Positions 717 to 4,782 of a DNA stretch of 64,000 bases are shown here, piece after piece (position 1 is the stretch's first letter; every line of letters begins with the position of its first letter). Made by a program: the position numbers. This DNA comes from Escherichia coli. GTDB lineage: Bacteria > Pseudomonadota > Gammaproteobacteria > Enterobacterales > Enterobacteriaceae. The stretch lies in NCBI RefSeq assembly GCF_041248615.1, contig NZ_CP158426.1. One strand, written 5' to 3'.

Positions 717-3700
717 GAATACAGGAGTAAATAATGCAAAAAATCGTGATCGTTGCCAATGGCGCACCTTACGGGAGCGAATCCTTGTTTAACAGCTTGC
801 GGCTGGCCATTGCGTTACGAGAGCAGGAGAGCAATCTGGATCTGCGCCTGTTCCTGATGTCTGATGCGGTCACAGCCGGGTTGCGCGGGCAAAAACCAGG
901 GGAAGGCTACAACATTCAGCAAATGCTGGAGATCCTTACCGCTCAGAATGTACCGGTGAAATTGTGCAAAACCTGTACCGACGGGCGCGGGATTAGCACA
1001 CTTCCTCTGATTGATGGGGTGGAAATCGGTACGCTTGTGGAACTGGCGCAATGGACGCTGTCAGCCGATAAAGTGCTCACATTTTAATGTTTGAGGGGGC
1101 GTCTGACGCCCCACTATGAGGGAAGTTTACTCAGGCGAATCCCGGCCGTAACACACCATCCGGATAATTCTCCGCCAGCAGTTTTTTTACCGATACCAGC
1201 AAATCATTCAGCCCATCGTCCTGCATTCCCAGTTTGATAAGCTCCTGTTCCAGTGAAAACAGGTATTGTGCATTGGTTCCCAGTGGACCGCTCGCCGCCG
1301 CAATCAACGGCGCGATGACCTGAGCGCGAGTGTCAGATTCATATTCTGGATGTCGCGGGTCCATAATAAACACAATGGCGTTTACTGTGCGTCCATCATC
1401 AAGATCAAGCTGACACCAGGTTGGCAGATAACAGCCGGTAATCATCTCACGCTTCCACAGCAGGGTTAGTTCCTGCTCCAGCGTCTCTTCTGGCAGTCGA
1501 TAGGCGACGCCTGTGGTGCGTCCGCCCTCTTTCAGTGCAAGCATTCGTCCCGGCTGGTGCGCAGTCCCGCGCCCGGCGGTCAGACGCAGGCAAAACGCGC
1601 GATGCCATCCAACCAGTGTACCGGTGCACGACTCGGTAAACTCCAGTGCCGGATTCCACATCAACGATCCATAACCGAAGATCCACACCGGTCCCTCATC
1701 AGGTCGACAAGCCAGCGTCGCCGCCAGCGAAGCCGCCCGTTGCTCTGCTGACCATAAGAGTGATTCTTCAATGGCACCAAATGCCGTTTTACAATCGGCA
1801 TTCATCAAGAAATCACGCGTTATCACCTTACACCTCCGCCACTGCATACTTCCCTGCGACAACTTTTTGGTGTCTTCCGGACATTTTTACTGCTCATTTT
1901 GAAACCACTAACGGGACAATATGCAATCCACGGACCACTTGCAAGGCAACACCGCACGAATAGCTTTAACTAAGCTACCGGTTTTACGATTTTTTATGCC
2001 ATTTATCATCATCCCCTTTGGCATATTCATGCTTCACAGCAGCCCAGGCCACTTTATGCGCGGTTTCTTCGCGACTGGCGTCATCACGCCGATCTTCTTT
2101 ATCTTTATATTGCTCCCATGCGCTGTTAAACGCTTCTTTATAGATATCCTGAGCATGAGACGGTAGCACGTGCTTTACGCTTTCCGGCAGATCGCTTTTC
2201 GTTTTATACGGCATCGTTGACTCCTTTTACAAAGTTGAACATTAAGTGTGGTCAACAATATCCACTCTTGCCAAAACATAAGAATTTTCATGTCAGACTC
2301 TTCTTAAGAAACGCTAAAACAAACATTGTCTAAACGCATTGCTTATTTTTATGGCCCGATGAGTAAAAAATCGACAGCGGGGTAAAAATTCGTAAAATGT
2401 TACCGATATCCAGACACTTTCTGTTATTTTTCCTACCTATTTTTTACATTTTCGATAAATTCATCTGCAAAGGGATAACCATAATGTCAAATGCTCAAGA
2501 GGCGGTAAAAACCCGCCACAAGGAGACTTCGCTTATTTTCCCGGTTCTGGCGCTGGTAGTGCTGTTCCTGTGGGGAAGCAGCCAGACACTACCAGTGGTC
2601 ATTGGCATCAATCTTCTTGCTCTTATTGGTATTTTAAGTAGCGCCTTTAGTGTTGTCCGTCATGCGGACGTATTAGCCCATCGCCTGGGAGAACCTTACG
2701 GTTCGCTTATTCTTAGCCTTTCAGTGGTTATTCTTGAAGTCAGTTTGATTTCAGCTTTAATGGCAACCGGCGACGCCGCGCCAACGCTAATGCGTGATAC
2801 GCTCTATTCAATCATTATGATTGTTACCGGTGGGCTGGTTGGCTTTTCATTATTGTTGGGCGGACGCAAGTTTGCCACCCAATATATGAATCTGTTTGGT
2901 ATCAAGCAGTATTTAATTGCGCTGTTCCCCCTGGCGATAATCGTACTGGTATTTCCAATGGCTCTGCCTGCGGCGAATTTTTCAACCGGTCAGGCGTTAC
3001 TGGTAGCATTAATTTCTGCGGCAATGTATGGCGTATTTTTGCTGATCCAGACCAAAACGCATCAAAGTTTATTTGTCTACGAGCACGAAGATGACAGTGA
3101 TGATGACGACCCGCACCACGGTAAACCGTCTGCCCATAGCAGCCTTTGGCATGCTATCTGGTTGATTGTCCATCTGATTGCCGTTATTGCAGTCACCAAA
3201 ATGAACGCCAGCCCGCTGGAGACATTGCTCGACAGCATGAATGCCCCTGTCGCCTTTACTGGCTTCCTGGTGGCTCTGTTGATTCTGTCGCCGGAAGGTT
3301 TAGGTGCGTTAAAAGCAGTGTTGAACAACCAGGTCCAGCGCGCGATGAATCTGTTCTTTGGTTCAGTGTTAGCAACCATTTCGCTTACCGTACCTGTCGT
3401 CACGCTAATTGCCTTTATGACGGGTAACGAATTGCAGTTTGCACTTGGTGCGCCAGAAATGGTGGTGATGGTGGCCTCTTTAGTGCTGTGCCATATCTCC
3501 TTCTCCACCGGACGTACTAACGTGCTCAATGGCGCAGCGCATCTCGCACTGTTTGCCGCCTATTTGATGACGATATTTGCCTGACAGTTATATCTCCTCC
3601 GATGACAGAAATCGGGGGAGATAATATAAATTCCTGCTTATTGTATTTCTTCATACTACCTGAACAGGTTGTTAATCAGAATTGCGAGCCTGTACCAGAA

Positions 3701-4782
3701 TCTGTACGAAACCACTGCAACAGCTGTTGAAAAGCCGGAATGTACTCTTTATTGCAAACATTTCAGGGATGAAGTGAAGATGAATTGAGACGTAGTATCC
3801 ACACCAAGCCGGCGTTATCCGGTGAGGCGCAATGTTGCGGGGGCTTTATCCCTGGTGGCATTGGTTGCTGGAAAGAGAAAACCCCCGCACGTTGAGAGGT
3901 AAAACCTGACAACAGAACGGGGGCTAATCTTGAACCATCAACAATTCAAGAATAGCCGCAAAATGTTGTCATTACAACAAGGCGGCTATATGACGCTCGC
4001 GCAGTTTGCCATGATTTTCTGGCACGACCTGGCAGCACCGATCCTGGCGGGAATTATTACCGCAGCGATTGTCAGCTGGTGGCGTAACCGGAAGTAAGGT
4101 GAAAACGGGCGTCAGGCTGCCGTGATGGCAATATGCGCCCGAAACCGGCCGCAGGGGTAACAGCCTGCGGCCTTTTTTGTCTTTATCTCTTCCACAAGTA
4201 AATATTGGCAACCCGAGCTGGAAGCATCATCCAGAGCACTCATGAAACGACTGTAACAGCTGTTGAAAAACCGGAATGCACTCTTCATTGCATACATTTC
4301 AGGGATGAAGTGAAGATGAATTGAGTCGTAGTATCCACACCAAGCCGGCGTTATCCGGTGAGGCGCAATGTTGCGGGGGCTCTATCCCTGGTGGCATTGG
4401 TTGCTGGAAAGAGAAAACCCCCGCACGTTGAGAGGTATAACCTGACAACAGAACGGGGGCTAATCTTGAACCAGAACAATTCAAGAATAGCCGCAAAATG
4501 TTGTCATTACAACAAGGCGGCTATATGACGCTCACGCAGTTTGCCATGACTTTCTGGCACGACCTGGCAGCACCGATCCTGGCGGGAATTATTACCGCAG
4601 CGATTGTCAGCTGGTGGCGTAACCGGAAGTAAGGTGAAAACGGGCGTCAGGCTGCCGTGATGGCAATATGCGCCCGAAACCGGCCGCAGGAGTAACAGCC
4701 TGCGGCCTTTTTTGTATCCGGCCCCATGAAAAAAGCCTTAACGCAGAACGCTAAGGCTTTAGTTTTCAAGCAAAAAAGATTA

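Follow-up and report, generated by a model that had tools for sequence, protein, structure and literature searches.

How many Ldr/Rdl type I toxin-antitoxin modules lie between chaA and kdsA in Escherichia coli, is each of them complete, and how would the synthesis of their toxins be held in check? We addressed these questions in a stretch of 64,000 nucleotides (the window; RefSeq assembly GCF_041248615.1, contig NZ_CP158426.1), in which a first-pass annotation had placed two tandem copies of the repeat. Our conclusion, in which we have high confidence, is that the region is a two-unit array of the E. coli long direct repeat (LDR) and that each unit is a complete Ldr/Rdl module, which would operate by the mechanism proposed below. 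It draws on direct observation of the repeat, the open reading frames (ORFs), the peptide and Rdl families, the terminators, the synteny, the distribution of copy number and the conservation of the predicted mRNA fold.

Over its whole length, the window matches E. coli NRZ14408 (NZ_LT599825.1, 3011672-3075671, the ychO to ymgD region) without a single mismatch, and the annotation of that record bears out the location between chaA and kdsA. The spacer between these two genes (3585-4779) is 1195 bp long and contains two head-to-tail LDR units. A direct-repeat search aligned 3638-3937 with 4174-4473 (spacing 536) and 3940-4180 with 4475-4715 (spacing 535, 99%). When the high-identity core was counted block by block, 220 of 229 positions were identical in 3709-3937/4245-4473 and 238 of 241 in 3940-4180/4475-4715, a 1-nt insertion or deletion (indel) separating the two blocks. 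The core is about 472 bp long, with about 97% identity between the units and a period of 535/536 bp; identity drops to 44-61% in the 70 nt upstream (3638-3708) and to about 30% past 4180/4715. A repeat of about 470 bp at 97% identity is impossible by chance. The spacing of 535 bp in the first-pass annotation was correct, but its repeat length of about 490 bp was too large, and its edges (3693-4714) lay 16 nt too far to the left and 1 nt short on the right.

The two ldr start codons, at 3990 and 4525, are 535 bp apart, and the products, MTLAQFAMIFWHDLAAPILAGIITAAIVSWWRNRK and MTLTQFAMTFWHDLAAPILAGIITAAIVSWWRNRK, differ at two residues, A4T and I9T, as a result of G3999A and T4015C. Both peptides matched Pfam PF13940 (Ldr_toxin) over its full length (86 and 87.2 bits, cut-off 27, aligned 1-35 of 35), in agreement with the earlier description of one 35-residue Ldr-type peptide per unit, two residues apart. 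Ldr_toxin was the sole family matched in the Pfam search; an NCBIfam search with both 35-residue peptides gave no match and was uninformative. The two peptides close with ...AAIVSWWRNRK, which places them in the Ldr/Fst superfamily as delimited in PMC2887945. RefSeq applies the label "type I toxin-antitoxin system toxin Ldr family protein" precisely to the two ldr positions of NZ_LT599825.1 and leaves the rdl genes unannotated. In K-12, LdrA is a 35-residue single-pass inner-membrane toxin, presumably pore-forming, whose overproduction inhibits ATP synthesis and either arrests the cell or kills it (PMC12643268), and LdrD and LdrA are toxic when overexpressed, the cognate Rdl relieving this toxicity (PMC4147584, PMC12643268). 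Toxicity, membrane localisation, repression by Rdl and cleavage by RNase III would carry over to the present units from this literature on K-12 ldrD and ldrA.

Each unit also contains, on the opposite strand, a full-length match to Rfam RF01813 (rdlD; gathering score 50), which fixes the positions of the Rdl RNAs that had earlier been placed by analogy. The target of Rdl is the segment of the ldr 5' untranslated region (UTR) located 49-114 nt upstream of the ldr AUG, to which it is perfectly complementary. The gap between rdl and the ldr ATG is 48 nt here versus 47 nt in K-12, and the ribosome-binding site (RBS) and the start codon lie outside the overlap. This corresponds to the published description of Rdl as an antisense RNA, about 60 nt in length, whose overlap with the long ldr 5' UTR leaves the RBS free and which relieves toxicity (PMC4147584, PMC8167048). 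The predicted rdl promoters are near-consensus (TTGTAA, 17 nt, TATTCT), with both hexamers kept in the alignment with K-12 LDR-D, and for each rdl the predicted start coincides with the Rfam 5' end; that of rdl-1 lies about 7 nt downstream of the -10 box, at 3941. Terminator-like stems at 3900-3881 (rdl-1) and 4436-4417 (rdl-2) are followed by a T-rich tail, and the RNAs fold as long hairpins (-27.3 kcal/mol for rdl-1) with z scores of -4.5 (rdl-1) and -5.3 (rdl-2). The Fst/RNAII system (par of pAD1) similarly encodes a short peptide that spans the membrane once and has a conserved Trp behind the transmembrane segment and a charged C-terminal cluster, here SWWRNRK, the link of the Ldr family to that of Fst coming from PMC2887945. 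It differs in that its antisense RNA lies opposite the 3' end of the toxin gene, whereas that of Ldr lies opposite the 5' UTR (PMC2887945).

We considered whether the units might be members of the hok/sok family instead of Ldr/Rdl. Rfam RF01794 ("sok") matched the sense strand at 3839-3992 and 4375-4527 with 27 and 30.1 bits, and the regulatory logic proposed for Ldr is indeed hok-like (PMC4147584, PMC8167048). Yet the gathering score is 59, far above these values; Ldr_toxin is the only Pfam family that the peptides match, with no Hok/Gef profile match found, and the antisense RNA matches rdlD above threshold. The RF01794 matches being sub-threshold and on the ldr sense strand, membership in the hok/sok family was rejected and is hardly conceivable. 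The same matches ("sok antitoxin (CssrC)") cover the 5' UTR up to the AUG and may reflect a faint structural likeness between the ldr and hok leaders, or chance.

The ldr and rdl promoters were predicted by a relaxed promoter scan combined with conservation with K-12 LDR-D. The latter (ldrD-rdlD) is the experimentally characterised member of the family and the namesake of RF01813. It has the same architecture, with conserved promoter boxes, Rdl hairpin, Shine-Dalgarno (SD)/AUG context and 3' UTR element, but is a single unit located elsewhere (bcsG-yhjV), with an mRNA about 77% identical and a peptide that differs at many positions. The similarity between LDR-D and LDR-A/B/C starts exactly at the -10 box (TAGTAT here, TAGAAT in K-12 ldrD), and mRNAs of about 375 nt are therefore predicted. 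Downstream of each ldr, the strong terminator reported earlier was recovered as a 9-bp stem with 8 G-C pairs followed by T6, in both units. The predicted mRNAs fold far better than shuffled controls (z scores in Table 1).

These observations bear on whether one or both units might be decaying, non-functional remnants, as are many chromosomal hok/sok copies, the two-copy state then representing ongoing loss. Copy number does range from one to three or more across strains, other strains display a frameshifted unit (PM4-5), IS200C and IS1 insertions or an IS3-associated rearrangement, and unit 2 carries two amino-acid substitutions. Nevertheless, both ORFs are intact and score about 60 bits above the Pfam cut-off, both rdl copies are full-length Rfam matches, and neither unit shows damage to its promoter boxes, its terminators or its predicted mRNA fold. 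Furthermore, the 21 substitutions between the cores avoid paired elements or keep the pairing. We therefore consider decay improbable and retain the reading of two complete modules.

How does this array compare with that of K-12? Strain MG1655 has three units between chaA and kdsA, ldrA/rdlA, ldrB/rdlB and ldrC/rdlC; its annotation confirms the three copies given in the first-pass annotation. Its spacer is 1729 bp long versus 1195 bp here, a difference of 534 bp. The locus, the orientation relative to chaA and kdsA, the 535-bp period and the rdl-ldr gap (47-48 nt) are the same, the unit 1 peptide is that of LdrA/LdrC, and identity to the closest K-12 counterpart is 96.7% for unit 1 (ldrC) and 98.3% for unit 2 (ldrA). 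Unit 1 also shares the unique left-hand sequence of the chaA-proximal ldrC unit of K-12. With unit 1 being ldrC-like and unit 2 ldrA-like, the unit without a counterpart in the window is therefore the middle one, ldrB. Besides having two units instead of three, the present array differs from that of K-12 by the A4T substitution of Ldr-2, which is absent from K-12 (I9T is shared with LdrB), and by a 1-nt insertion at the Rdl 5' end of unit 1, which brings a TTG-initiated frame, discussed below, in frame with ldr.

The distribution of copy number in the species was assessed in two ways. The inter-unit junction is found between units only and therefore served as a copy-number probe (71 nt, 4176-4246); it was detected at 6536 places (median 2, maximum 6), spread over 4065 of the 5426 complete E. 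coli genomes. Independently of the repeat, the length of the spacer was read with a 4-kb query made of the chaA-side and kdsA-side flanks only, in 60 complete E. coli genomes picked at regular intervals along the ranking. One copy was present in 16 genomes, two in 21 and three in 20; the other 3 comprised a degenerate unit, an IS3-associated rearrangement and a cut at the record start. Direct checks gave one unit in Nissle 1917 and two in O157:H7. Both measures agree that the two-copy state, present in about one third of complete E. coli genomes (21/60), is ordinary. The difference of two versus three copies noted in the first-pass annotation thus stands, but not as a peculiarity of this strain, as one, two and three copies are each common. 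Type I loci are known to evolve by lineage-specific duplication and loss (PMC2887945), and unequal recombination between the 535-bp tandem units would account for the passage from two to three copies or from three to two, the lack of a middle unit being its expected outcome. The ibs/sib loci of E. coli are likewise tandem type I modules in one intergenic region with a copy number that varies between strains (PMC2887945); they differ by their unrelated toxin and RNA families and by the fact that Sib overlaps the entire ibs ORF.

The same data speak to the possibility that the two-copy array is an assembly artefact due to the collapse of three copies. While 535-bp tandem repeats at 97% identity can collapse in short-read assemblies, the same 1195-bp spacer occurs in about one third of the sampled complete genomes, from many independent projects and including O157:H7. 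In addition, 21 differing positions and an indel set the two units apart, and they match the outer K-12 units cleanly, with no chimeric signal. Such a collapse is very improbable, and we take the two-unit array as genuine.

A 1601-bp query spanning both units was also tried as a copy counter and dropped, because BLAST joins overlapping pieces and nearly every genome then looks covered. This query had 5 places in NZ_LT599825.1 (median 4 per E. coli genome); more LDR-related copies, for instance an ldrD-type locus, therefore exist outside the window. Other E. coli strains showed IS200C and IS1 insertions within the LDR spacer; in strain PM4-5 one LDR unit is frameshifted and about 200 bp longer, and strain 1344_LBHALD has its kdsA-side unit linked to dgcT/pgaA through an IS3 remnant. 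A sequence of the Escherichia LDR/Rdl type was also found on a 503-bp contig (NZ_JABWSY010000055.1, coverage 0.66) of the "Bacillus sp. EB106-08-02-XG196" assembly, where it is most likely a contamination.

We then asked how expression of the toxin would be controlled. In each unit, a weak promoter (-10 TAGTAT) would drive the synthesis of an ldr mRNA of about 375 nt that is highly structured and consists of a 184-nt 5' UTR, an ORF of 35 codons encoding a single-pass inner-membrane peptide, and an intrinsic terminator. Overproduced Ldr would depolarise or permeabilise the membrane and halt ATP synthesis. The 66-nt Rdl would be made constitutively from the opposite strand, its promoter being situated in the interval that separates the Rdl 5' end from the ldr start codon. 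Two blocks would oppose the synthesis of Ldr, the first being the sequestration of the SD sequence and of the AUG by a conserved element of the 3' UTR.

The 3' UTR element in question is nearly invariant between LDR-D and LDR-A/B/C despite the diverged coding region. We compared 19 distinct Ldr mRNAs, down to 76% identity, from E. coli, E. whittamii, Escherichia sp. E1V33, Citrobacter sedlakii and Pseudocitrobacter. The contig pattern scan demanded an exact match to two conserved Rdl segments and returned only 10 loci; the set is therefore small and biased to close relatives. RNAalifold recovered from the 19 sequences the same long-range helices as the minimum free energy (MFE) fold. In these helices, 97.8% of the cells were paired, compared with 31-52% when the 3' partners were slid by 1-3 columns. 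The pair 3974-4123 was seen as A-U, U-A and G-C, and many one-sided changes elsewhere retain pairing. The comparison lends modest support to the idea that pairing between the 3' UTR and the ldr ribosome-binding site is conserved, and the predicted fold, together with its conservation, suggests that sequestration of the SD sequence may be a regulatory step.

The second block would be exerted by Rdl, through its covering of a conserved G-rich, SD-like sequence and a TTG codon. The Rdl-complementary segment holds the invariant CGGGGGCUAAUCUUG, in which the G-rich SD-like run is followed 6 nt further on by TTG, and the frame opened by this TTG is open up to the ldr start in 17 of the 19 Ldr sequences. 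It exists in two registers, in frame with ldr in unit 1, in ldrD and in others, and ending in an ATGA overlap with the ldr start codon in unit 2 and in K-12 ldrA/B/C. In unit 2, the frame stays open back to a GTG at 4358. By preventing upstream translation that reaches the ldr start and opens the initiation region, Rdl would act in a way comparable to hok/mok/sok. A coupling of this type via a leader ORF, ldrX, has been proposed as the mode of action of Rdl and is explicitly presented as unconfirmed (PMC4147584, PMC8167048). The TTG frame fits, without proving it, a model in which Rdl blocks the upstream translation that would melt the SD/anti-SD helix.

The hok/mok/sok systems (plasmid R1 and chromosomal homologues) resemble ldr in several respects: the toxin is a small membrane protein, the mRNA is stable, strongly folded and provided with a long 5' UTR (for ldr, as predicted), the antisense RNA pairs upstream of the toxin RBS, and a leader ORF has been proposed to couple this pairing to translation. 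Long-range pairing silences their full-length mRNA, as the predicted fold and its conservation suggest for ldr. In contrast, the ldr units are outside their sequence family (sub-threshold Rfam sok, peptide not Hok), and 3' processing and leader-ORF coupling are hypothetical for ldr (PMC4147584).

The duplex formed by Rdl and the ldr mRNA would also be a substrate of RNase III. This raises the alternative that, in otherwise the same Ldr/Rdl modules, Rdl acts mainly through RNase III cleavage and decay of the ldr mRNA rather than through a block of the upstream frame. A perfect duplex of 66 nt is an obvious RNase III substrate. In K-12, an RNase III-dependent double-stranded RNA peak of about 21 nt in the ldrD-rdlD overlap is among the most abundant p19-captured clusters, and a shorter ldrD fragment builds up in rnc mutants only (PMC7373196). 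Yet the levels and half-lives of full-length ldrD and rdlD rise only slightly in rnc mutants (PMC7373196), reviews give inhibition of protein synthesis as the mode of action of Rdl (PMC4147584), and within the Rdl target lie a conserved SD-like sequence and a TTG from which the reading frame extends to the ldr start. We regard predominant action through RNase III as a serious but unlikely alternative to the translational block.

Several points weigh against the scheme of two complete modules silenced by the fold and by Rdl. A standard promoter scan of 3500-4900 gave no sigma-70 site at threshold, and the scores in the relaxed scan were low (7/12 for ldr, 8/12 for rdl); the ldr and rdl transcription starts in this strain are predicted ones. 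In the long-range helices, double changes were seen in only 2 of 34 pairs, and the consensus structure used for the pair counts was derived from the alignment itself, with 19 sequences that are related; it is because structure and counts come from the same alignment of related sequences that the support from covariation is modest. The TTG frame is not uniform across units and is closed in two Pseudocitrobacter sequences, and the leader-ORF model is unconfirmed in the literature (PMC4147584). Finally, the toxicity of the A4T/I9T variant, Ldr-2, is presumed by extension from K-12 ldrD and ldrA.

Are the two units equivalent? Their cores are 21 substitutions and one indel apart, two of the substitutions altering the peptide. 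Of the 66 positions of the two rdl genes, 62 are identical; the mismatches fall at the 5' end and on the nucleotide at the centre of the apical loop, in Rdl as in the target hairpin (3902 A versus 4438 T). On the plus strand, this loop nucleotide is A in unit 1 and in K-12 ldrB and ldrC, T in unit 2 and C in K-12 ldrA. No other position varies as much among these otherwise near-identical units, and this centre of the triloop sets the fate of a GTG-initiated upstream frame, which either meets a TAA stop (3900-3902) or continues to the ATGA overlap. The 1-nt indel lies, with nearby changes, at the Rdl 5' end (unit 1 ...AACCATCAAC..., unit 2 ...AACCAGAAC...), and it switches the register of the TTG frame between the units.

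These differences in frame register and loop nucleotide leave room for the idea, which we consider doubtful, that the two units are non-redundant. If this were true, unit 1 could give an N-extended Ldr of 55 residues, or be activated by read-through instead of reinitiation. The apical loop is the usual site of first contact in antisense pairing. The loop difference could make each Rdl kinetically favour the mRNA of its own unit, as in Ibs/Sib, and copy number and unit identity would then set distinct, independently controlled toxin outputs. In PMC2943612, repression by Sib is described as cognate-specific; we consider copy-specific repression of this kind by Rdl unlikely. The features of the array and of its flanks are collected in Table 1.

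Table 1. Positions in the window of the LDR array, its annotated and predicted elements and the flanking genes.
Feature	Position	Strand	Remarks
LDR unit 1 core, chaA-proximal	3709-4180	+	Closest to K-12 ldrC unit, 96.7%
LDR unit 2 core, kdsA-proximal	4245-4715	+	Closest to K-12 ldrA unit, 98.3%
Inter-unit junction spacer	4181-4244	+	Occurs between units only
ldr-1 coding sequence, 35 aa	3990-4097	+	Identical to K-12 LdrA/LdrC, WP_000170955.1
ldr-2 coding sequence, 35 aa	4525-4632	+	A4T/I9T variant, WP_000176713.1
rdl-1 antisense RNA, 66 nt	3876-3941	-	Rfam RF01813 rdlD, 83.6 bits, model positions 1-66
rdl-2 antisense RNA, 66 nt	4412-4477	-	Rfam RF01813 rdlD, 87 bits, model positions 1-66
rdl-1 promoter, predicted	3949-3977	-	-35 TTGTAA (3977-3972), 17-nt spacer, -10 TATTCT (3954-3949)
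rdl-2 promoter, predicted	4484-4512	-	-35 TTGTAA (4512-4507), -10 TATTCT (4489-4484)
ldr-1 -10 box TAGTAT, predicted	3793-3798	+	Weak -35 ATGAAG at 3769; predicted start about 3806
ldr-2 -10 box TAGTAT, predicted	4329-4334	+	Predicted start about 4342
ldr-1 mRNA, predicted, about 375 nt	3806-4180	+	184-nt 5' UTR; MFE -165.3 kcal/mol, z -6.3
ldr-2 mRNA, predicted, about 374 nt	4342-4715	+	MFE -165.1 kcal/mol, z -7.1; architecture as in unit 1
ldr-1 intrinsic terminator	4147-4180	+	Stem 4147-4172 and T-run
ldr-2 intrinsic terminator	4682-4715	+	Stem 4682-4707 and T-run
ldr-1 translation-initiation region	3965-3998	+	SD GGCGGCU 3981-3987, AUG 3990; predicted pairing with 4107-4132
ldr-1 3' UTR anti-SD element, predicted	4107-4132	+	Pairs with SD/AUG region in MFE and consensus folds
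ldr-1 3' UTR segment	4134-4139	+	Predicted partner of 5' segment 3826-3831
Unit 1 TTG frame	3930-3989	+	In frame with ldr; potential 55-aa N-extended product; candidate ldrX-type leader
Unit 2 TTG frame	4466-4528	+	Stops at TGA overlapping ldr ATG (ATGA), like K-12 ldrA/B/C
chaA (Na+/K+:H+ antiporter)	2484-3584	+	Left flank; annotation of 100%-identical NZ_LT599825.1 and ORF
kdsA	4780-5634	-	Right flank; annotation of 100%-identical NZ_LT599825.1 and ORF

Some other features were observed elsewhere in the window. Rfam RF00119 (C0299 small RNA) matched 51148-51226 on the minus strand (111.9 bits, gathering score 40), between umuD, which ends at 51088, and an IS3-family transposase gene (51357-52585) upstream of hlyE. 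At 60233-60352, within the ypjA/EhaD autotransporter adhesin gene (59276-62638, minus strand), about 9.9 copies of the 12-nt unit GGATTTGGGTTC follow one another (91% matches), and a degenerate A-rich tandem repeat of 12/36 nt lies at 40627-40761, within a gene for a hypothetical protein (40302-41738, plus strand). Between treA and ymgE, the annotation of NZ_LT599825.1 shows a cluster encoding an iron ABC transporter, a SAM-methyltransferase, ModD and a TonB-dependent receptor (28529-34955).

The LDR locus, its toxin family, its antisense RNA and the tandem copies with lineage-specific gain and loss are already published, and both toxin genes are annotated in the identical RefSeq record, so that the array is of little weight as a discovery. 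What the present analysis adds is the exact coordinates of two unannotated rdl genes with their predicted promoters and terminators, and the finding that arrays of one, two or three copies are all common in the species, which means that the three copies of K-12 are not the norm. It also provides comparative support for a conserved pairing between the 3' UTR and the ribosome-binding site and for a conserved TTG frame covered by Rdl, both of which bear on the unconfirmed ldrX model.

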